In this document: piece by piece, positions 6,606 through 56,384 of the stretch
How positions within the stretch are numbered: the stretch's first letter is position 1
Layout of the letters: each line of letters begins with the position of its first letter
Source of the DNA: a virus
Taxonomy: Duplodnaviria; Caudoviricetes
IMG/VR virus record: IMGVR_UViG_3300034061_006011
Strand: one strand, 5' to 3'
Length of the DNA stretch: 64,000 bases
Made by a program: the position numbers and the translations under genes
The notes under the pieces: model-generated
Seen by the model: only the letters and a program-made list of their open reading frames with translations
Told to the model about the DNA's origin: nothing
The model's database searches: none

Positions 6606-8372
6606 ATGGATAATTGGAAGAAAAAATACAAGTCTTTAAAAGACTACTATTTAAATCAATATGACTCAGAATTCTATTCAATAGATAACTATCAATTGGA
6701 AATTGATCCAAATGAAACTATTGATGATGTTTCTGCTTATAATCAACAAAGACAAGAAGAAGAAACATATAAATGCATGCAATCTTTTTCTTATTTTTGC
6801 CATAAATATATCAGAATTTTGCATCCAACAAAAGGCTTAGTGCCATTTATAATTTTCAAATACCAGCAAAGAGTAATTGATGATTATGAAAACCATAGAT
6901 TTAATATTATCTCAAAATTCCGTCAGGGTGGTTTAACAACAGTAACATTGCTTCACGGACTTTATAAAGCATTATTCACACTCGATTTTTCAATGATGCT
7001 TATATCAAAGTCTGACCGTGAAGCTGTAGAAGCTGGATACATCGTCGATAGAGCTATTGAACATTTACCAGAATGGCTTAAACCTAAAAAAGATGGTAAG
7101 TGGAATGACCACCTTAAACAAATTACTGAAACAGGTGGTAGCCTTAGATTTTATTCGCCAGAAGCCGCCCGTGGAAAGTCTGTGGCATTCATTTGTATAG
7201 ATGAAGCAGCATTCTTACCTAATATGGAAACGGACTGGAGAGCTTTGTATCCAGTTCTTTCAACAGGTGGTAAATGTTCAATTATTTCTACAGTCAACGG
7301 TACAGGTAACTATTATTACGAATTATATACAGGAGCAAAAGAAGGTAGAAACAAATTTAATATTATTGATATTGACTATCACGAACATCCTTTCTATAAT
7401 TCGAAAGTAAATCCAGAATGGGCAGATGAACAAAGAGCACAGCTTGGCGAAAAAGGTTTCTTACAGGAAATTCTTAGAGTATTCCTTGGATCTGGTGACA
7501 CATATATTCCCGGTAAAGAATTAGCAAGACTTGATGAAGAAGTAAAAAATGGTTTTCCTAAAAGGAAACTTTTTGCAAAATATCAAAATAAAACTAAAAA
7601 CGATGATCCAGATATGAAAGAAGAAAATAAAGGAGCATTGTGGATTTGGAAAGAACCAGCACCAGCAAAAGAATATATATTCGGTATAGATTGCTCAGAA
7701 GGAGTAATGGCTGATAACTCTTGTATTCAAATTGTAGATACAGAATCAAGAGAACAAGTTGCTGAATTTTATTCCAACAACATAACACCTTATGAATTTG
7801 CACAAGTAGTTTATGAATTGGCAATTTTATATAACAATGCTTTGCTAGTGATAGAAGATATGGCTGCTGGCATGTCAGTAATTAACACTTTGCAAAATGA
7901 GCTTTATTATGATAATTTTTATTATCACAATCCAGATTCAAGAAATGCTAGAATTGGAATTAAAACAACTGTCTCTACAAGACCGTTGATATTGACAAGC
8001 TTTCAAACAGCAATTTTGCAAAAATCATTAAAAGTAAATTCTGTAAGACTATTGCATGAAATGAAAACATTTGAATACAATAATACAACTAAAAAACCAG
8101 AAGCTCATAAAGGTAAACATGATGATGCAATTATGGCTTTGGCTTTATGTTTGTATGTCCTGTCAACTCAAAACAAATCTCAACCAGCAGGATATGATGG
8201 TAAAAAAGCTAAAGCATCAATACTGCTAGAAGATATAAAAAAAGAAATCAGCGAAAATATGAAAGCGAATTTTAAGTCAAAATTTAAACCAAAAGAAGAT
8301 AATAAAGATTATTCAGAAATGATTGCACTATATCGACCAAAAAATACACTCTTAAATGAGTTTGGGTGGTGA
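6606..8372 (+). CDS. terL: terminase large subunit (T4 gp17-like)
   Basis: KFRQGGLTT Walker A variant, ICIDEAAF Walker B, IISTVNG coupling motif, RNase H-like nuclease GIDCSEG...HDDAIMA. Confidence 0.93.
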   Translation: MDNWKKKYKSLKDYYLNQYDSEFYSIDNYQLEIDPNETIDDVSAYNQQRQEEETYKCMQSFSYFCHKYIRILHPTKGLVPFIIFKYQQRVIDDYENHRFNIISKFRQGGLTTVTLLHGLYKALFTLDFSMMLISKSDREAVEAGYIVDRAIEHLPEWLKPKKDGKWNDHLKQITETGGSLRFYSPEAARGKSVAFICIDEAAFLPNMETDWRALYPVLSTGGKCSIISTVNGTGNYYYELYTGAKEGRNKFNIIDIDYHEHPFYNSKVNPEWADEQRAQLGEKGFLQEILRVFLGSGDTYIPGKELARLDEEVKNGFPKRKLFAKYQNKTKNDDPDMKEENKGALWIWKEPAPAKEYIFGIDCSEGVMADNSCIQIVDTESREQVAEFYSNNITPYEFAQVVYELAILYNNALLVIEDMAAGMSVINTLQNELYYDNFYYHNPDSRNARIGIKTTVSTRPLILTSFQTAILQKSLKVNSVRLLHEMKTFEYNNTTKKPEAHKGKHDDAIMALALCLYVLSTQNKSQPAGYDGKKAKASILLEDIKKEISENMKANFKSKFKPKEDNKDYSEMIALYRPKNTLLNEFGW

Positions 8373-27713: not shown

Positions 27714-27851
27714 AATACATATCTATCCCACAAAAACAAAAACCCTACCACCCCCAAAAAAATACCCCGGCGCATTTTTTTAAACCCCATACCTTCATAT
27801 ATTTTTAACCTATTACCACATATACACAATACCATGTCACAACATTTCTGT

Positions 27852-27975
27852 AAAATGAAATAAAATTATTCCAGATTTTTAGAAAATGAAATAAAATTAT
27901 TCCAGATTTTTAGAAAATGAAATAAAATTATTCCAAAATTTTAGAAAATGAAATAAAATTATTCCAAAATTTTTT
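27852..27975. repeat. 4 x 31-bp AT-rich tandem repeat
   Basis: AAAATGAAATAAAATTATTCCA(G/A)A(T/A)TTTTAG. Confidence 0.95.
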
Positions 27976-28156
27976 AAATAAATCAAGATGAACAACAAAA
28001 GGGAGCCATGATGGCGGGGGGATACCCCCCTACCCCACTCTCTTTTGGGGAATGTCAAGTGCAATTATGTTATGGCAACTTTGTAACATAATTAAAAAAC
28101 CCCTATAAAACAAGTGCGGCGCAATTGTGTTATCACGCCGCCTGCCTATTCTGTTA

Positions 28157-28339: not shown

Positions 28340-28524
28340 TGAATGCCGATTGATCCCCACACTACTATTATCGGCATTCAACCAACCAGACTTGAACCAA
28401 CCTAAAGATTCTTCCTAACCACATTTTAGTATCCTAAGTTTGTCCGCATTGTCTCAATTGAAATAACAATAAAAAAACCCCCTTCTCCGGGTGGAGAAGG
28501 GGGCTGTTGATTATTGTTAGCCTA

Positions 28525-29190
28525 TCATTCAGATAACAGAATCATTTCTAATTCCCCCCCACGGATTCCCATTGAAGGGAATCCCTTGGCTGAATAAATT
28601 CTTTCGATTGCGTCTTCGGACGTTAGCCCGAAGACGTTTTGCAATTGTTGGAACAGGCACTTCAAATGGCGATCCAGTGCCAACTTTGTTATCACAATAA
28701 CAAAGTTTTCAATGGTGCCGTTAACACGGCACGCCGTCCCAGTGGGACGGTTGATTTCAAAATTAACCGTCCCAAGACGGTTCACATCCCACTTATAACG
28801 CCCACTGGCGGATTGATCCGCCGGTGTTGGTAGTGGGTGTTGACAATTACAATAAGTATCCTGATCCGCATTGAAATAGTCCGCCCAATCAATGGGCGTT
28901 CCAATGCACGCCCAAAGATGCCCAAACGAATGGGCGATTTTACGGGACACCCGCAATTGTGCGGGTGTCATTTTTGAAGTCTCAAAACTGAATTCATCGG
29001 GATACCGAAGTGGCTCGCCACTCCAGTGGCGTGAACAGTCTCGCTTGCCCCGTAGGGCAAGCGATGCGATTTCAGCGGCATTGGGTGCCGCAGCGTTCTT
29101 CCTGATCCAGTGGTTGAGATACGCAACACGACCGGTTGCGGTTGCGGTTGCGGTTGCGGTTGCGGTGGCGGTGGCGGTTGAAATGGTCAT
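28525..29190 (-). CDS. hypothetical protein with N-terminal (TA)n microsatellite
   Basis: start moved to 29190; 8 x CGGT(T/G)G at 29133-29180. Confidence 0.7.
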   Translation of the reverse strand: MTISTATATATATATATATGRVAYLNHWIRKNAAAPNAAEIASLALRGKRDCSRHWSGEPLRYPDEFSFETSKMTPAQLRVSRKIAHSFGHLWACIGTPIDWADYFNADQDTYCNCQHPLPTPADQSASGRYKWDVNRLGTVNFEINRPTGTACRVNGTIENFVIVITKLALDRHLKCLFQQLQNVFGLTSEDAIERIYSAKGFPSMGIRGGELEMILLSE

Positions 29191-29552
29191 GTTCGATACT
29201 CTCATGCCCGTTTCAGGTACGGGTGGACCTTGGCTAAGGTGAACCACAACATGCGGTTCACCTACGACTATCTTAACATCATCCCCAACTAGGTCAAGAG
29301 AAAATCCACCCAAGAGAAAAGATTCCTCCCATCCACATTTTAGTATCCTAGTGTTGTCTCAATTGTCCAGCAATAGGATTCCTCCCATCCACATTTTAGT
29401 ATCCTAGTGTTGTCCACATTGTCCAGCAATAGGATTCCTCCCATCCACATTTTAGTATCCTAGTGTTGTCTCAATTGTATCAATTCAGATAACAATAAAA
29501 AAACCCCCTTGACTTGTCTGTCAAGGGGGTGGTTGATTAAGTTAGCCGATTG

Positions 29553-29759
29553 TTATTTAATTTTGTCGAGCCACATATCGATGATTCCAGAAACCAGTTT
29601 CCTTTCCTTTGGTTTCATTCTTAGAAACATTTTTAGATGTTCAACGATTTTCTCGAATCGTTCCAGCTCATTTTTGATTCTTTTAAGTTGTTTGTCTACC
29701 CTCTTTGGGCGAGAAACCTTTCCATCAACAATGCGGCTTGATTCGTTTTCAGTTCTCAT
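29553..29759 (-). CDS. small coiled-coil hypothetical protein
   Basis: own promoter, leader and terminator. Confidence 0.65.
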   Translation of the reverse strand: MRTENESSRIVDGKVSRPKRVDKQLKRIKNELERFEKIVEHLKMFLRMKPKERKLVSGIIDMWLDKIK

Positions 29760-30006
29760 GGTATTCGATCCATACGGTTTTCAGGGGAACCGGGAACCTA
29801 GAAGCGGCACACTATGCGCCGCCTCATGCATTCATTCTACCATCATCCCCAACTAGGTCAAGGGAAAAGAAAAGATTCCTCCCATACACATTTTAGTATC
29901 CTAGTGTTGTCTCAATTGTCCAGCACAATATCAAAATTGAAATAACAATAAAAAAACCCCCTTGACTTGTCTGTCAAGGGGGCTGTAGTTTTGTTATCTG
30001 ATATTG

Positions 30007-30273
30007 TTATTTTGTGAACGCCTCCAGTATTGCCTTCATGGCAACGTCTCTTATTTCACTCTTAGGCAAACGCATGATTGCCCGCATACAAGAGATTTTA
30101 TTCTTGTAGCTTTTGAGTAGGTCATCCAATGGCGTTTTCTCCCTTGCGTGGGGTATTTCCGGCAGATTAAACCGCTGTGGCTTATCGCACTTAATGTATT
30201 CCTTGTATTCCTTTTCCCGCTTGTCGGCGGTTGGAGAAACGGTTGCGGCAACGGCGTTACGCTCAATTTTCAT
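30007..30273 (-). CDS. hypothetical protein
   Basis: own promoter and leader shared with 29553-29759. Confidence 0.65.
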   Translation of the reverse strand: MKIERNAVAATVSPTADKREKEYKEYIKCDKPQRFNLPEIPHAREKTPLDDLLKSYKNKISCMRAIMRLPKSEIRDVAMKAILEAFTK

Positions 30274-30585
30274 AGCAGTCGATCCAACCGGTTTTCAGGG
30301 GAACCGGGAACCTAGAAACGGCACACTATGCGCCGCCTCATGAAGTCATTCTAACAACGTCCCCAACTAGGTCAAGAGAAAATCCACCCAAGAGAAAAGA
30401 TTCCTCCCATCCACATTTTAGTATCCTAAAGTTGTCCGTATTGTATCTTAAGAGGAATTCCTCCCATCCACATTTTAGTATCCTAAAGTTGTCCGTATTG
30501 TATCGTAATAGGAATTCCTTCCATCCACATTTTAGTATCCTAAAGTTGTCTTAATTATCTAGAACGATATCAAAAAAGGGTGTAA

Positions 30586-31785
30586 TAGTGTTAGCCGATA
30601 ACGAAATAGCGGAGATAACGAAATGGCGGGAATAGTGTTAGCCGATAACGAAATAGCGAAGATAACGAAATGAAGGTAATAGTGTTAGCAGATAACGAAA
30701 TTAAAGATATGAAAACAAAAAAACCCCGCAAGCCTTTCGACTTGCGGGGCAGATTGACCGGCAGGGGTTGTCATGTTGTCGTGTGTGATGTAATCTTGAT
30801 CACATTATTGGAAACACCTTGATAAACCGGAGACATCTTACCCGCATGAGTGAACTCAATTCCGTAATTGGCACCGACACGGAATTCGGTTTCCGTTCCG
30901 GGTTCATAAGCCACGAAACCGATATTCGTTGCCTCATGAACAAAGTTCACGATGCGAGTTGGTTTCCCATATCCCCAGCGTACTGGTGAAACCCCTACGC
31001 ATATCACTTCAATATTGTAATTACCCGGCTCAATCGCTTGAGTGATTGGCGTTGGCAATTTAATAGCTGCAATTGGTGCAAGTGGTGCAATTGGTGCAAT
31101 TGGTGCCACTGGTGGCACTTGCGCCACTGGTGCCACTGGTGGCACTTGCGCCACTTGCGCCAACGCTGCCCTAAGCGTTGCCAATTGTTCGGGGTTGAAA
31201 CCCCGAACAAGATCAAGCATCGACTGGCTTGCATCGATTGCCACTGGTGCGGAAACGGACTTGGCGTTCTTGCGGGGTGCCATGGTCATAAACTCCATGC
31301 CAGTTTCAGGATACTGGCGGAACCGGTTAAGGTGAACCACAACATGCGGTTCACCTACAAGCATCATAGGGAAACCGTTTCACTAGGTCAAGCGAATTCC
31401 CAAGAAAGTTTCCTTACAAATTCTTAAGATCCGCGGACCCCCCCCCCTCCCATCCACATTTTAGTATCCTAAAGTTGTCTCAATTGTCCAGTCTGGTAAC
31501 AAAAAAGGAATTCCTCCCATCCACATTTTAGTATCCTAAAGTTGTCTCAATTGTTTCTAAAAAAAACAAAATTAAATTATAATATTTAATTTCATAATTA
31601 AAATAGTTATCAGATAACGAAAGTGGCAATAATGTTAGCCGATAACGGAATAGGGGAGATAACGGAAACGGTAATAGTGTTAGCGGATAACGTAAGTGGG
31701 AATAGTGTTAGCGGATAACGGAAGTGGGAATAGTGTTAGCGAATAACGGAATAGGGGAGATAACGAAATTACCGATATGAAAACA
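30586..31785. repeat. two blocks of GTTAGCNGATAACG / GATAACG repeats (30586-30712, 31605-31785)
   Basis: about 5 and 7 GATAACG copies; both blocks adjoin the same terminator. Confidence 0.9.
30771..31289 (-). CDS. hypothetical protein with AP-rich linker and beta-rich C-terminal domain
   Basis: start after GGAG at 31289; AQVPPVAPV repeats. Confidence 0.7.
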   Translation of the reverse strand: MTMAPRKNAKSVSAPVAIDASQSMLDLVRGFNPEQLATLRAALAQVAQVPPVAPVAQVPPVAPIAPIAPLAPIAAIKLPTPITQAIEPGNYNIEVICVGVSPVRWGYGKPTRIVNFVHEATNIGFVAYEPGTETEFRVGANYGIEFTHAGKMSPVYQGVSNNVIKITSHTTT

Positions 31786-31841
31786 AAAAAACCCCGCAAG
31801 CCTTTCGACTTGCGGGGCAGGATTGCCGATATGTTATTCGA

Positions 31842-32099
31842 TTATGCACCAAGCCAGATGATCTTGGTGTTCTTATTGGCAAGATGACGGGTGAGCAGGA
31901 AGACGAGATCAGTGTCTTCCTTTTTTGAAATCATCTTGATTACGTCACCGTTTCGATCAACGGTCAATTGAACCGAAGTTCCTTCAATCTGGTTCATTCC
32001 AAGGCTTGTCACCTTGGAAGTGGACAACGCTTCAACAATTGCGTTATCTACTTTTGCGTCGATGAGAACAGCAATCGAAACCTGAATATTGTTATTCAC
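31842..32099 (-). CDS. hypothetical protein
   Basis: own promoter, leader and terminator. Confidence 0.6.
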   Translation of the reverse strand: MNNNIQVSIAVLIDAKVDNAIVEALSTSKVTSLGMNQIEGTSVQLTVDRNGDVIKMISKKEDTDLVFLLTRHLANKNTKIIWLGA

Positions 32100-32359
32100 G
32101 GTAAGAATCTCAATCCGGTCTTAAGGTGAACCGGTGACCTAGGCTTGTTGAACCATTCACCAAGCCATGAACGTATTAGACCACAAACGCCAAACCACGT
32201 CAAGAGAAAATTCCAGCAGGAGAAAATTCCTTCCATCCACATTTTAGTATCCTAAAGTTGTCTCAATTGTCCAGTCTGATAACAAAATTGAAATAACAAT
32301 AAAAAAACCCCCTTGTCCGGGGGGACAAGGGGGCTGTCAATTTTGTTCTGTTATGAGAT

Positions 32360-32593
32360 TCACCACCAAGCGGTAGCGTTCTCCTTGCTCACTTCTGAAA
32401 TCTTGATCAATATCGAAACGAGACTATCACGAAGCTCGTCATTCGATTGATCATTTCTGAATTCTTCAACGAGTACCTTGTACTTGGCTACAAGCTTTTC
32501 AATCTTTGAAATAACATTGAGAAGCTGTTTGCTTGGAACCTTGGAAGCTTGGGCTTCCTCTTCTGCCGTCATGATTCTGTTATCGTTGTTCAT
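32360..32593 (-). CDS. small coiled-coil hypothetical protein
   Basis: GGAG RBS, start at 32593. Confidence 0.6.
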   Translation of the reverse strand: MNNDNRIMTAEEEAQASKVPSKQLLNVISKIEKLVAKYKVLVEEFRNDQSNDELRDSLVSILIKISEVSKENATAWW

Positions 32594-32983
32594 TTTGTTT
32601 TCTCCAGTGCTTTGCGACACCATGCCGCATTGAGCAAACACAATTTACCACAACCAACCGCAGCTTGTCAACAACACTATTTGCCCCTATTACGGTAGGA
32701 GATATACAGCCGTGTATATGTAGGGATTAGTATGCAAGATATGCAACGCCGATGGTGAACCGTCGATAAGCCGAACGGATTAGATAAGCATAAGACGGAA
32801 CCGTCCCATCCACATTTTAGTATCCTAAAGTTGTCTCAATTGTCCACGCAGATATCAAAACGACGATATGCCCCATCCACATTTTAGTATCGTAAAGCTA
32901 GTGGAATAGTAGCTTATTAAATAACAATAAAAAAACCCCCTTCTCCGGGTGGAGAAGGGGGCGGTTGATTATGTTAGCCTAAC

Positions 32984-34084
32984 TTATTTGGCTTCTTGAT
33001 TTACCTTTTCAAGAGACTTCAGAATCATTGCAAGCTCATGGCGGCTTGCACAATTCTTAGCACCTTCAATATGTCCTGCAAAATCTGAAATGAACTTCCG
33101 TGCTTCAGATTTTGCATCACATTGTTTTTCAAGGAATAACAAAAGTCCATCGATTTCCTCCCTAGACAATCCCTTTTGCCGCTTTTCGGCGGTTGGGGAA
33201 ACAGTTGGTTGGTTCAATGGTGGCAGTGGTTGACGTGATGGAGGAAGGACAGAAGAAGGAGTCTTCGGGTCCACTTTAGGTGGCATTGCTGCACCTGAAA
33301 GATTGATAGGTGGAAGATCTTTCTTCTTCTCTTCGATCTTAGCTACGGCTTTGGCTTCTGCTTTTGTGGCAGCAGAAGGAGCAATACCAGAATTGATTCC
33401 TTTATCGGCAAGCTTCTTGTCGATAACGTCAATAATTTTATCGTTGAGCTTCTTCTTCTCTTCCTTGCTCTTGTCCATTTCTGAAATCACTTCGGTTGCT
33501 GCGGCAATGTCCGCCATGACTTCAGGAGGAACAGCCTTTCCATTCTTCCTTTCTAACAAACGAAAAGCGGAAGACTTCGTATATTCTCCTTCATGGATAG
33601 ACAATTGAATTGCTTCGGGCAACTTGAGCAATTTCAAAAAGTTTGATACTTCAGAATCTGAAATATTAAAATGCGCTGCTATGGTCTTTTGTGTCCAATT
33701 GAATTCCTCCTTAGCCCGTAGCATATCCTTAGCCCGATCAATGAATGAAGGATTGTGATATGAATTCTCAACAATCTGAATTACGAAATGATCTTCTCTG
33801 GTCCTTGCCTTGTAAACAAGAGCTGGAATCTCCTTTAATCCAGCTTCTTTAGCTGCCATGGTACGGCGAATGCCGCCCATGACTTCAAAAGTGCCGTCTT
33901 CCTTTTCATTCAGAATGATATTCTGAAGAACTCCATGAATCTTAATGTTATTTGCCAATTCTGTGATTGACGCTGGGTCCATTCCAGCCTTCCGATTCCT
34001 TGACAAATCATAATTGATTTTGTCAAGAGCAACGATCATCCGAACAGAAGCAGGTGAAGAAGAAACCTTAGATGCCTTAGCCAT
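32984..34084 (-). CDS. parB: ParB/Spo0J-family partition protein
   Basis: SIxELAxNI..HGVLQNI, GGIRR box II variant, EN, HTH WTQKTIAAHFNISDSEVSNFLKLLKLP; start after GGAG. Confidence 0.85.
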   Translation of the reverse strand: MAKASKVSSSPASVRMIVALDKINYDLSRNRKAGMDPASITELANNIKIHGVLQNIILNEKEDGTFEVMGGIRRTMAAKEAGLKEIPALVYKARTREDHFVIQIVENSYHNPSFIDRAKDMLRAKEEFNWTQKTIAAHFNISDSEVSNFLKLLKLPEAIQLSIHEGEYTKSSAFRLLERKNGKAVPPEVMADIAAATEVISEMDKSKEEKKKLNDKIIDVIDKKLADKGINSGIAPSAATKAEAKAVAKIEEKKKDLPPINLSGAAMPPKVDPKTPSSVLPPSRQPLPPLNQPTVSPTAEKRQKGLSREEIDGLLLFLEKQCDAKSEARKFISDFAGHIEGAKNCASRHELAMILKSLEKVNQEAK

Positions 34085-34702
34085 TTCAAAATCTCCTATT
34101 TTGTTTTCTTTCAGGATCAAACTGTTCTCACCTGAAAGAAACCGTTCCGCCCTTTAGCGGTGAACCCATTAAACCACAACCGGCTTAACGTGTCAAGTGT
34201 TTTTTTTCCTCGGCAAAACAAGCGTTTTTAACACTTGCAACTTCAGAATTGAACACGGTTGGCGTTGTGTTTTCACAAATCCACCCAAACCACACCACCA
34301 TCAAGGACACCCTTAGTATACGAAAAACACCGAGGAAAATCAAGTACCTCTTATATATTGATATCATAGGCGCGCGCCCCCTTCCATCCACATTTTAGTA
34401 TCCTAAACCCATCTTTAATTGATACTAAAATGTGAATGGGGATGGGCGGTTTTATACAAGTATAAAATCATATCAATCGTTTGATTCGATTCCTTCCATC
34501 CACATTTTAGTATCCTAAAGTTGTCTCAATTAGTTTTGCTCAAGTATCAACTAAGTCTCAATTGCGTTTTTTCAACTATCTGTAAAGGGGAAATTACATT
34601 TCATAATCATTCCTCCATCCACATTTTAGTCTCAATTAAAGATGTGCTTAGGATACTAAAATGTGGATGGAACCGGACAGTCTTATACTAATACAAAATC
34701 AA

Positions 34703-34766
34703 TTCATTCGTTTCATTTGATTCATTCATTTGATTCATTCGTTTGATTCATTCGTTTGATTCGTTT
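34703..34766. repeat. 13-mer AT-rich tandem repeat TTTGATTCATTC(G/A)
   Basis: three full units at 34716, 34729, 34742 plus partial flanks. Confidence 0.9.
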
Positions 34767-34882
34767 CTTTCCCATCCACATTTTAGTCTACAAGAAGTGT
34801 AGCTTATTAAATAACAATAAAAAAACCCACCTGAGATGTCTCAGGTGGGTGATGAATTTTAGATTGTTAGAGTCTTATTTGA

Positions 34883-39568: not shown

Positions 39569-40549
39569 TTAGTTAGCGACTTGGACGGCTAGGTCTAACG
39601 CCCGTTTGTTCATATTAGCTGATTGACCGAACCAGAGGGAGGTGTATCGGTTATCAGGGTTTCGTCCGGCGTTGTGAGAGAGGTGTTCGGTGACTGCGTT
39701 GTAAGCAGACCACCAAGTACCTTCAGCGAGGTCAGATCCTACGCCGACATAGGCGAGGTCGGTGATTTCTTTGACACGGTTGAAGGAGCGGGTTGACATT
39801 TCGCCATCGGTATTGACATCAACGTCAAGGACTTTGATGACATATTCGACGAGATCCTTGTGGTTAACGATTCTGCTTTTGGCGAGGAATCGGTATTGTT
39901 CCATGGTGGCTTGGAACTCAGAGTTTGCGAGAACCATAATTTCTCGAACTTTGTCGAGAACTTCGGTTTGTCGTTTGTGGTGCCGAATACGGAGGAGTTT
40001 AGATTCCGAATCGGATTTAGCTTGAGCTAATGTATTAGCACAAACTACACGGACTGGGGTGAAACCTGCACGGGTGGATTGAGTCCCGTCGAATGAAGTG
40101 GAAAGAAGGATATAGCGTTTAATCGCATCACCTTTAACGACTTCGGATTCTTCTTCATTAACTTTGCACATAGCAAAGATAACCCTACCTCCTTTGAGGA
40201 CACCGGCGGTTTCAAAAGTAGCTAGACCTGAGTCAACAACAGGTTGAAACCATTGAAGAGCTTCACTTGGTTGAATTGGTTCCCATTGTGGACCAACTGT
40301 GCCGAGGTAAGCTTGATCGACATCACGGAGAACGCCGAATGAATCTTCGGTTGGTGTAAATTCTCCGTTTTCGTCTTTGCGGTAGAGAGGGGATTTGTAA
40401 ACTCCCCAATCCATGTTTGCGGCTTTGAGGAAGGACAGATAATTCTTAGTATCATCTCCTTCTACTTTCTGACCGAGTGAGTGCCAACCGGGTTGACCGG
40501 CGAAGGCGAAAGAAGCGACATTATTCCTGTTTTCGATATCGTGTGCCAC
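39569..40549 (-). CDS. DUF932-family phage/plasmid protein
   Basis: MAHDIE...GQPGWHSLG, FETAGVLKGGR, LLSTSFDGT, TPVRVVCANTL, GTWWSAYNAVTE; GTG start at 40549. Confidence 0.85.
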   Translation of the reverse strand: MAHDIENRNNVASFAFAGQPGWHSLGQKVEGDDTKNYLSFLKAANMDWGVYKSPLYRKDENGEFTPTEDSFGVLRDVDQAYLGTVGPQWEPIQPSEALQWFQPVVDSGLATFETAGVLKGGRVIFAMCKVNEEESEVVKGDAIKRYILLSTSFDGTQSTRAGFTPVRVVCANTLAQAKSDSESKLLRIRHHKRQTEVLDKVREIMVLANSEFQATMEQYRFLAKSRIVNHKDLVEYVIKVLDVDVNTDGEMSTRSFNRVKEITDLAYVGVGSDLAEGTWWSAYNAVTEHLSHNAGRNPDNRYTSLWFGQSANMNKRALDLAVQVAN

Positions 40550-40671
40550 TGTCTGAATCTCCTTATAACTGTCGTTTCTGGGCGAAGTTGCCGTTGACGA
40601 CAGGTGTATTGTAGCGTGTTTCGGTCGTGGTGTCAAGTGTTTTTTTTTATTTTTTTGGGGTTTGTGGTTGT

Positions 40672-55002: not shown

Positions 55003-55557
55003 TTATACCGAAAGATCCCTAAAGACTGCTATTAGTTTTAACAAGGATTCACTTTCTAATTGAATCCTCATATCATTACTGTTGGGTCCATTATACTCAA
55101 GTTCCTTGTCATAGTCAAGGAACATTTTTTTGGATTCTGGCAAATAGATTCTTTCTTGCAGAGATAATTTACTTAATGCTTCCCGAAATGTTTCAATTTC
55201 CCGATCATTTCTCTTTTTATCTACTATAAACTGTTCAGGAGATTGGTCATCTTCAACTACAATAGTTGTTTCAAAGTCAAGAACATTTCTATGATATCGT
55301 TTCTTATGCATCCATAAAGATCGGGCACCTTTCATTTGCCAAGCAGCATGACCGGAGAAAGATCCTTTAGTTGGATCATAAGTGGATGCAGCAACGACCA
55401 AGCTCATCATAAGCTCTTGCCGATATCCTTCTTCATCACGAAAATAAACACCTTTTGGAGTTCTTTTAAGGAACCATTCTACCAATGCAATATTATCTTC
55501 TACCAACTTCCTTTGAGTATTAGTCAAAGGAGAAACTTCTTTTTTTTGTTTAGCCAT
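55003..55557 (-). CDS. sigma70-family region-2 protein
   Basis: LVEDNIALV...ELMMSLVVAASTYDPTKGSFSGHA. Confidence 0.75.
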   Translation of the reverse strand: MAKQKKEVSPLTNTQRKLVEDNIALVEWFLKRTPKGVYFRDEEGYRQELMMSLVVAASTYDPTKGSFSGHAAWQMKGARSLWMHKKRYHRNVLDFETTIVVEDDQSPEQFIVDKKRNDREIETFREALSKLSLQERIYLPESKKMFLDYDKELEYNGPNSNDMRIQLESESLLKLIAVFRDLSV

Positions 55558-55727: not shown

Positions 55728-56384
55728 TTATTCTTCAAATTGGTCCCTTAGCCTTTCTACGCATTTTTTTGTTATCTGTTGAATGCGTTGTCGTGTAACT
55801 CCAAGTTCATCAGCAATACTTTGAAAACTTTTTTCATTAAAATAATGGTCTATGACTATTTGTCTGTGATGAATAGGAAGAACATTTAGGTTAATATAAA
55901 ACACAACTTTCTCTTCTTGTGGTTGCCTTAAAGTTGAATGTTTTGATTTGCTAATTACTTTATCGTTAATTGTAATTAGTTGATAATTATCTTTCCTTCT
56001 TCTATTTTTTACAAAATAGATTTCATAAATCCTTCTAAAGAAAGATGTATAGAAGTATGTCATGAACAAGACTTCACCGGGGATGAAGTATTTCTGGCAG
56101 CTACAATAGACATATAAAGCAATATTTTTAGCTTCCTCTAAATCTAATTTAATTTTATATTTTTCTTTGAATTTGCTGGCTAATTTTCTGGAGAAGTATG
56201 TTGTCATTTTGATAATATCTTCTTTAGGAAATTCAATATTTTTAATATCATTGTCTATATTTCTGCGATTTGCTTCATTTTGAGCAATACGCAGAGAATA
56301 CTTTTTATTTTCTCTTCCTATCTTTATGTCTACACAATCATTTGTTGTATAGACATATCCATCCTTGGTTTTAGTGTACCACAT
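55728..56384 (-). CDS. sigma70-family-like protein with region-4 HTH
   Basis: LP...RQIVIDHYFNEKSFQSIADELGVTRQRIQQI. Confidence 0.75.
   Translation of the reverse strand: MWYTKTKDGYVYTTNDCVDIKIGRENKKYSLRIAQNEANRRNIDNDIKNIEFPKEDIIKMTTYFSRKLASKFKEKYKIKLDLEEAKNIALYVYCSCQKYFIPGEVLFMTYFYTSFFRRIYEIYFVKNRRRKDNYQLITINDKVISKSKHSTLRQPQEEKVVFYINLNVLPIHHRQIVIDHYFNEKSFQSIADELGVTRQRIQQITKKCVERLRDQFEE

Follow-up and report, generated by a model that had tools for sequence, protein, structure and literature searches.

A conserved-loop hairpin with covarying stems precedes the predicted ribosome-binding sites of unrelated genes in a phage parB island

Introduction

The gp43 operator of phage T4 is a hairpin that is located upstream of, and overlaps, the ribosome-binding site (RBS), and the bases of its loop decide binding (PMC3014915). 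In the gene 43 operators of T4 and RB69, the 3' AC or AA of the loop is especially decisive, and the stem differs between phages (PMC3014915). Genes 38 and 25 of T4 carry another kind of hairpin in the translation initiation region, the split SD-AUG hairpins, named after the Shine-Dalgarno (SD) sequence (PMC3014915). Here we describe a family of short hairpins, each the second hairpin (H2) of a 5' leader with two hairpins, in a 64,000-nucleotide (nt) stretch of DNA from a virus of the class Caudoviricetes (IMG/VR record IMGVR_UViG_3300034061_006011; hereafter, the window). The source appears to be a T4-like phage, a label that within the window rests on the T4-type large terminase encoded at 6606-8372.

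Several RNA elements from other systems resemble these leaders in part. The HK022 put RNA suppresses termination through two stem-loops, which act on RNA polymerase in cis. Hairpins of the ompA type, placed in the 5' untranslated region (UTR) at the very 5' end of the transcript, block 5'-end-dependent attack by RNase E or RppH. The guanidine-II (mini-ykkC) element is a tiny cis-regulator in which two like hairpins with free stems, each with an ACGR tetraloop, are located just before the SD. The known phage translational operators serve one gene each or, like the RegA sites, have no structure, and the cis-regulatory RNAs of phages are poorly catalogued.

As judged from its sequence, H2 does not seem to be a member of any described family and looks like an RBS-adjacent hairpin operator in a new form, namely, one that is multi-gene, portable and island-specific. 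The gene 43 operator is probably its nearest working analogue in T4-type phages: both are short hairpins that abut the RBS from upstream, with H2 located 3-5 nt 5' of the SD. However, the gene 43 operator serves one gene and is bound by the product of that gene, whereas H2 is found on ten unrelated genes, none of which encodes a polymerase, and the loops differ (AAUAACUC in the operator, CC-NN-AA in H2).

Five leaders share one architecture

An earlier, sequence-only reading of the window had proposed a family of leaders in which a CCUGAAA loop is kept while the stems change, right before the RBSs of unrelated genes, and had taken it for an undescribed cis-regulatory RNA motif bound by a common factor. 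The hairpins that it quoted are all present on the minus strand (29223-29207, 29792-29775, 30307-30288, 31318-31299 and 32134-32115, together with a stem at 34141-34105 in the leader of parB), and a first hairpin (H1) precedes each H2, so that the two-hairpin description holds. The five leaders, at 29.2, 29.8, 30.3, 31.3 and 32.1 kb, follow the same order from the predicted transcription start (+1) through H1, a linker, H2 and a weak SD to the start codon. H1 is a hairpin of 11-12 base pairs (bp) that begins 0-3 nt after the predicted +1; the linker between the hairpins (6-13 nt) contains GGU; and H2 consists of a 5-6 bp stem and a 7-8 nt loop with CC-NN-AA at the loop end, such that the loops in the window end in CCUGAA or CCUUAA. 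The weak SD (GGAU, GGGU, GAGA or GGAG) lies 3-5 nt 3' of H2, and the start codon follows 13-16 nt after the base of H2. The SD is 3-4 nt long in the H2 leaders, compared to AAGGAG or AUGGAG in other cassettes. The features of the five leaders are listed below with their coordinates in the window and the open reading frames (ORFs) that they precede; bit scores and E-values are those of a covariance model built on H2 plus flanks, and the E-values are rough owing to short calibration.

29270..29297, minus strand: promoter of cassette 1, TTGACC-16-TAAGAT, with the predicted +1 at A29263
29237..29263, minus strand: H1 of leader 1, a 12-bp 5'-terminal hairpin, AGGUGAACCGCA/UGUGGUUCACCU, present in both the minimum free energy (MFE) and the centroid structure
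29207..29223, minus strand: H2 of class a, CCCGU-ACCUGAA-ACGGG; start codon at 29190, 221-aa ORF; 52.5 bits, E 6e-10
29801..29825, minus strand: H1 of leader 2, GAGGCGGCGCA-UAG-UGUGCCGCUUC, from RNA folding, with compensatory variants in relatives
29775..29792, minus strand: H2 of class b, CGGUU-CCCCUGAA-AACCG; start codon at 29759, 68-aa ORF; 64.6 bits, E 1e-12
30315..30339, minus strand: H1 of leader 3, a paralogue of leader 2, from sequence repeat and folding
30288..30307, minus strand: H2 of class b, CCGGUU-CCCCUGAA-AACCGG; start codon at 30273, 88-aa ORF; 66.3 bits, E 4e-13
31330..31356, minus strand: H1 of leader 4, the same hairpin as in leader 1, from sequence repeat and folding
31299..31318, minus strand: H2 of class c, GCCAGU-AUCCUGAA-ACUGGC; start codon at 31283, 170-aa ORF with PVA repeats; 58.9 bits, E 2e-11
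32142..32166, minus strand: H1 of leader 5, GGCUUG...CAAGCC, from RNA folding
32115..32134, minus strand: H2 of class d, CCGGUU-CACCUUAA-GACCGG; GUG start at 32099, 85-aa ORF; 62.2 bits, E 4e-12

In RNAfold predictions, H2 is either part of the MFE structure of the short leaders or within ~1-2 kcal/mol of it, and the z-scores of the leader folds range from -1.0 to -3.1, with H1 as the dominant contribution. The leaders at 29.8 and 30.3 kb are paralogues (88% identical), and those at 29.2 and 31.3 kb have hairpin 1 in common; a diverged copy of the latter at 37.0 kb shows changes that, judged by eye, seem compensatory. Because the window alone yields about four independent stems, the statistical weight comes from the relatives of this phage.

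The motif is confined to the parB island

Searched against the 64-kb window, the covariance model matches exactly these five leaders, with E-values between 4e-13 and 6e-10, and the next match has an E-value of 3.3; a covariance model had been suggested in the sequence-only reading as a check. The five matches are all in leaders of one compact region:

28413..34800, minus strand: parB island, 6.4 kb, with a GC content of 44% compared to 30-38% in the rest of the window

The minus strand from ~29000 to 57400 carries ~35-40 near-consensus sigma-70 promoters, close to TTGACA-17-TACAAT, each followed by a hairpin within 6-9 nt, an SD and a small ORF, and most of these units are closed by a strong GC-rich terminator. 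The model finds no H2 in the ~30 cassettes that have H1 only. Thus, H1 is general to the early cassettes, whereas H2 is specific to the island. An internal contrast comes from the gene that follows parB:

32591..32635, minus strand: leader of the 77-aa gene, with H1 only, a strong GGAG SD and no H2

Elsewhere in the window, on either strand, a relaxed scan for the hairpin and loop gave only three further matches, none of them in leaders. The loop word on its own is not enriched window-wide (14 occurrences of CCTGAAA found, 13 expected).

The search of the whole window against Rfam 15 yielded no families at the gathering threshold. At E<=10, the island shows scattered low-scoring matches, most of them over cassette terminators and none covering H2; the sole sub-threshold match that touches a leader (18 bits, against a family cut-off of 49) lies over H1 at 29.2 kb. 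To this extent, the earlier description of the motif as undescribed is borne out. The island has no relevant blastn match in the phage and plasmid collections, and no relative was retrieved from the viral contig collection with ParB, the island repeat described below or the class b hairpin as query; the single match among viral contigs (L069) lies inside a coding region and is due to chance. A 17-mer scan of genome contigs gave no information, since its more than 120 matches lie in unrelated bacteria and are due to chance.

Stems covary and leaders are exchanged among relatives

We collected ~25 related pieces, all from lake water, via the contigs of ParB homologues, a metagenome scan with the island repeat, and contigs that carry the 85-aa gene. 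Together with the window, these relatives define five stem classes and six loop variants. The fifth class, class e (CCGAUG-ACCGUAA-CAUCGG), and the loop form ACCUAAA come from the relatives; in a variant of class e, CCCGAUG is replaced by CCUGAUG with a G-U pair retained. The model-guided alignment of 28 distinct leaders has pairing in 95% of the cells, compared to 17-56% when the 3' partners are slid, and double-sided changes occur at five of the six stem pairs (for example, GC/CG, GC/AU/CG and UA/GC). No shuffle reached the observed covariation score, and an independent MAFFT alignment agrees on the covariation. The CC and AA of the loop, as well as the GGU of the linker, are invariant. Thus, the earlier claim that the stems covary while the loop is kept stands across the five classes, with one amendment: of the CCUGAAA loop, CC and AA are kept in every case, whereas the two letters between them vary (UG, UU, GU or UA). 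H1 also shows compensatory changes among the relatives (GAGGCGGC/GCCGCUUC against GACGUGGC/GCCACGUC).

The genes downstream of H2 belong to ten protein families with no BLASTP similarity to one another, none of which has a Pfam family, in agreement with the proposal that the hairpin precedes the RBSs of unrelated genes. Three of these ten families carry more than one H2 class among strains. Depending on the strain, the PVA-repeat gene is preceded by class c or class a, with the stems GCCAGU/ACUGGC, GCCCGU/ACGGGU or ACCCGU/ACGGGU; the 85-aa gene follows class d, or class b in three relatives (L014, L190 and L192); and a 94-aa gene is found with either class b or class e. The segment with the SD and the spacer is swapped as well (for example, ...UUGAAGCC-AUG, ...UCGAAUACC-AUG and ...CUUACC-AUG), and about ten different sequences of this segment all keep the start codon 13-16 nt from the base of H2. 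More divergent contigs, reached via the 85-aa gene, contain new combinations and no new stem class; no homologue of the 85-aa protein falls below 74% identity.

The ParB alleles of four relatives (L001, L014, L015 and L016) are only 61-72% identical to that of the window, yet their contigs hardly differ from the window in the leaders and in the cassettes downstream. Since the leaders remain nearly identical even where ParB identity is only 61-65%, the island is a recombining mosaic, and the pattern indicates that ParB alleles are replaced by recombination inside a conserved frame.

This pattern also bears on the possibility that H2 has no specific function and that the leaders are recent paralogues spread by recombination, with the loop kept by descent only. 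The origin of all copies from one phage lineage and the strong recombinational homogenisation implied by near-identical leaders next to divergent ParB alleles fit such a history. However, neutral drift should alter the loops faster than the stems, and what is seen is that four to five of the six stem pairs differ by class, always with compensation, while CC..AA and GGU are unchanged. We consider this explanation improbable.

Comparison with described regulators

Autogenous control of the gene 43 type does not account for H2. We looked for UAAC, UAAA and CAAC in the loops ACCUGAA, CCCCUGAA, AUCCUGAA, CACCUUAA, ACCGUAA and ACCUAAA: UAAA occurs only in the last of these, and UAAC forms only from ACCGUAA together with the first base of the stem. 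The candidate was rejected on the grounds that H2 is not autogenous and that its loop as a whole differs from AAUAACUC.

Like the hairpins of T4 genes 38 and 25, H2 is located in a T4-type initiation region, and an SD-like AGGU lies immediately 5' of it. In those genes, however, the SD is 5' of the hairpin and the start codon directly 3', whereas the real SD of the H2 leaders is 3' of H2. The triplet that follows H2 is AUG, UUG, AUU, GUG or ACG (the last in one class b leader) and is in frame with the ORF in some leaders only; in a class a3 leader, the AUG after H2 is followed immediately by UGA. With no conserved start codon directly 3' of H2, a split SD of this kind was discarded.

Two SD regions, AUGGAU and UUGGAU, look like CsrA sites. 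However, no GGA is present in any H2 or H1 loop of the H2 leaders, each of which contains at most one GGA (0-1 per leader). Classes a and d lack GGA in the SD region: class a has none anywhere, and the only GGA of class d spans the 3' end of the H2 stem. A pattern scan of the window detected no CsrA-like ORF. Given loops without GGA and the lack of a second GGA, the leaders do not qualify as CsrA/RsmA targets.

The guanidine-II element resembles the H2 leaders in that it is very small and in that its hairpins, free in the stem and conserved in the loop, immediately precede the SD. It differs in that its two hairpins are alike and have ACGR loops, whereas the H2 leaders combine two unlike hairpins and a CC-NN-AA loop, and the Rfam search gave no guanidine-II match even at E<=10. 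Stabilisers of the ompA type may be comparable to H1, which in all cassettes begins within 0-3 nt of the predicted +1 and 6-9 nt after the -10 hexamer. They are unlike H2, which is internal and has a conserved loop that a stabiliser does not need.

The lambda nut site has several traits in common with H2: in both, a conserved linear element is followed by a hairpin whose loop is conserved while its 5-bp stem is free, and both are located in early phage leaders. Furthermore, the words CCCUGAAAA occur both in class b and in lambda boxB. The HK022 put RNA, compared here by description only, has a similar layout of two hairpins. H2 could accordingly be imagined as an antitermination signal that, with or without an N-like protein, drives RNA polymerase through the cassette terminators. 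In support of such a role, the leaders resemble lambdoid nut sites in several respects: a conserved single-stranded element is combined with a short hairpin whose loop is conserved and whose stem is free, the two lie close to the start of early phage transcripts, and strong terminators follow. The island also encodes several small basic proteins. Most of the details point elsewhere. In boxB, the letters in question form the stem and a GNRA-like pentaloop, whereas in class b they form a loop of 7-8 nt. No match to boxA (CGCUCUUUA-like) was found at up to two substitutions in the seven island leaders. In contrast to nut, H2 is tied to the RBS, and its fixed distance of 13-16 nt to the start suits a translation signal rather than nut or put. 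Finally, each cassette has its own promoter, so that read-through is not needed. A lambda-type nut was rejected on the size of the loop and the lack of boxA, and antitermination in general seems to us to have a faint chance at best.

A portable translational operator and its main rival

H2 bears the classical signature of a recognised hairpin, namely, a free stem and a fixed loop. The reading that we tentatively favour, while short of confident in it, is that H2 acts as a portable translational operator and that one factor, common to the leaders, recognises its loop. We read it in this manner because it is island-specific and RBS-tied, combines a free stem with a fixed loop, and has an analogue in the gene 43 operator.

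Under this operator reading, H2 would be the regulatory part of a portable 5'-UTR 'expression adaptor' that consists of a sigma-70 promoter, H1, the GGU linker, H2 and the weak SD, and that would be used by, and swapped among, the single-gene cassettes of the parB island. Since H1 is placed where the transcript is predicted to begin, its most probable role would be to shield the mRNA against 5'-end-dependent decay. The stem of H2 would be a mere scaffold for which any pairing sequence suffices, and a single trans-acting factor, common to the leaders and most likely a protein, would recognise the loop (N0-2-CC-NN-AA), perhaps together with the invariant GGU. From its position on H2, such a factor would control the access of the 30S subunit and thereby co-regulate about ten unrelated island genes. 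We infer the transcription start sites, the translational role, and the existence and nature of the factor from these patterns. The sequence-only reading is partly supported: its common factor is a conjecture that we share, and the element could also fold on its own.

Several observations weigh against the operator. All copies come from a single phage lineage with no more than five independent stem classes, and the cell counts of the alignment are inflated because leaders recombine with one another. An alternative fold of class b in a shifted register (GGUU:AACC plus CGG:CUG) has almost the same predicted energy as H2. No RNA-binding domain was detected in the ORFs of the island or its neighbourhood with Pfam and PHROGs, and an Atlas search with the 85-aa and 77-aa proteins produced no candidate factor. 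Finally, the invariant GGU is complementary to the loop ACC in classes a, d and e and to the RCC just before most starts; because of this complementarity, the conserved letters could serve intramolecular folding rather than a factor.

The last point leads to the main rival, which we regard as somewhat unlikely: H2 would fold by itself and need no factor of its own. It would nucleate a small tertiary or extended structure, which would either set the rate of translation from the weak SD or shield the RBS against the influence of the gene swapped in behind it. Three pairings are candidates for such a structure: GGU could pair with the loop ACC, which would give an H-type pseudoknot whose third loop is rich in A; UCC could pair with GGA in the SD; and GGU could pair with the RCC that precedes the start. 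In favour of such a fold, GGU is invariant, and sequences complementary to it are found in the loop of classes a, d and e (ACC(U)) and, for most leaders, ahead of the start codon (ACC or GCC); a basal extension (UCC:GGA or UCA:UGA) is part of the MFE folds of classes b, c and d; and the loop lengths fit the geometry of H-type pseudoknots. However, the putative partners are both invariant and never covary, and the alignment is neutral on these pairings because all the letters concerned are invariant. Moreover, class b, the commonest of the classes, has CCCCU in the loop, class c allows only GG:CC, and ACA or AAC precedes the start in some leaders. ViennaRNA gives no scores for pseudoknots. The predicted SD accessibility of the H2 leaders (0.39-0.58) is not below that of the H1-only cassettes (mean ~0.5), which also speaks against this fold.

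The same unpaired probabilities of the SD region (0.39-0.58 in the H2 leaders, ~0.5 on average in the other cassettes) led us to reject sequestration of the SD by H2. Other candidates likewise failed on conservation. Mini-ORFs of five codons with a UGA that overlaps the main AUG, considered as leader peptides, are present in only some leaders; the AUG at +1 and the UAG stop of a leaderless upstream ORF are not conserved across classes; and the stop codons in the loops, as potential ends of upstream ORFs, have no conserved upstream start.

A broader proposal, which we consider rather unlikely as a whole, is a post-transcriptional regulon of a giant T4-like phage over a hypervariable island, in which an RNA-binding protein of a new kind, encoded by the island or elsewhere in the phage, reads the RBS-adjacent CC-NN-AA loop, or else GGU and H2 form a new minimal pseudoknot switch. 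Recognition in such a regulon would resemble that of boxB or MS2, and the action would be RegA-like across many genes; the operator would travel with the promoter as a plug-in, placing each newly captured gene under the same control at once. If this holds, H2 is a structured, conserved-loop operator that is common to about ten unrelated accessory genes and exchanged together with the promoter; it would show how a phage controls a fast-changing gene island uniformly, and would provide a compact, context-independent expression part of ~20 nt. If H2 is only a folding aid for weak RBSs, the addition to knowledge is modest. The motif is, in any case, a clean target for covariance-model searches of viromes.

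The parB leader is a different structure

The sequence-only reading had also placed the parB leader in the family, which proved incorrect.

34105..34141, minus strand: long stem of the parB leader, UUUCUUUCAGG/CCUGAAAGAAA, in the MFE structure, not a member of the H2 family

The covariance model does not detect this leader, and CCUGAAA is here the 3' arm of an 11-bp stem, that is, paired rather than looped. The stem shows a compensatory change from U-A to C-G in two relatives (L014 and L016) and is thus a real hairpin, but a different structure from H2.

The parB leader is also relevant to the possibility that the H2 loop is a rapid-pairing target of a trans-acting antisense RNA, with formation of a kissing complex. 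The YUNR U-turn motif is typical of antisense target loops, and Y-U-N-R (CUGA, CUUA or CUAA) is present in five of the six loop variants; furthermore, the parB leader contains UUUCAGG, the complement of CCUGAAA. However, this complement is locked in the 11-bp stem, and complements of 6-7 nt arise by chance in many places. The loop ACCGUAA lacks YUNR, and no promoter-like site on the plus strand faces any of the leaders. An antisense target is thus very improbable.

The parB island and neighbouring genes

The gene for which the island is named (32984-34084) encodes a protein with ParB_N and HTH_ParB domains. A repeat of ~30-40 nt with the core CCATCCACATTTTAGTATCC is present in 16-17 copies in 28413-34800, mostly in intergenic regions upstream of the island promoters, and as a query it retrieves related metagenome contigs. 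It has the form (CAATTGAGACAAC)TTTAGGATACTAAAATGTGGATGGGAGG, with one to three copies in most of the intergenic spaces of the island (for example, 29327-29357, 30405-30435 and 32804-32834), often at a spacing of 56-57 or 67 bp, and contains a weak promoter-like sequence, TGGACA-16-GATACT. The repeat could be a ParB (KorB-like) site or the operator of another regulator.

Two iteron-like arrays, at 30582-30701 and 31598-31752, consist of three and five copies, respectively, of GTAATAGTGTTAGCCGATAACGAAAT-like units spaced by 28, 45 or 47 bp; they are located directly 3' of the terminators of the 170-aa and 85-aa cassettes and may be an origin or a binding array. Between the island and a 387-aa gene, five tandem copies of a 31-bp AT-rich unit (ATTTTTAGAAAATGAAATAAAATTATTCCAG) occupy 27813-27998. 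Two of the proteins encoded downstream of H2 contain repeats that vary in length among strains: the (P/A)VA repeats of the 170-aa protein derive from an in-frame 9-bp coding unit (31062-31124), and the N-terminal (TA)n run of the 221-aa protein from ACC-GCA repeats (~29135-29180).

Another hairpin, CUCCUA-CCGUAA-UAGGGG (32684-32701, minus strand), has the loop letters of class e and is located 13 nt upstream of the -35 element of the promoter of the 77-aa gene. It lies outside the predicted leaders and is missed by the H2 model; it is kept in all relatives. The 144-nt intergenic region around it (32672-32815) folds no better than shuffled sequences (z -0.2).

Beyond the island, the single-gene cassette layout of 29000-57400 on the minus strand is unusually regular, with recurring classes of hairpins such as GAAAGCAA-AUGG-CUUGCUUUC and GGC-AACUUC-GCC. 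Among the early cassettes, a DUF932 protein (39569-40552, minus strand; E 3e-44; PHROG 1221) is encoded; this family is common in phages and in the leading regions of conjugative elements. Two adjacent sigma-like genes are present on the minus strand at 55003-55557 and 55728-56384: the 184-aa sigma-like ORF has only a weak region-2 match, below the cut-off (E 0.005), and the 218-aa ORF matches Sigma70_r4 above the cut-off (E 4e-11).

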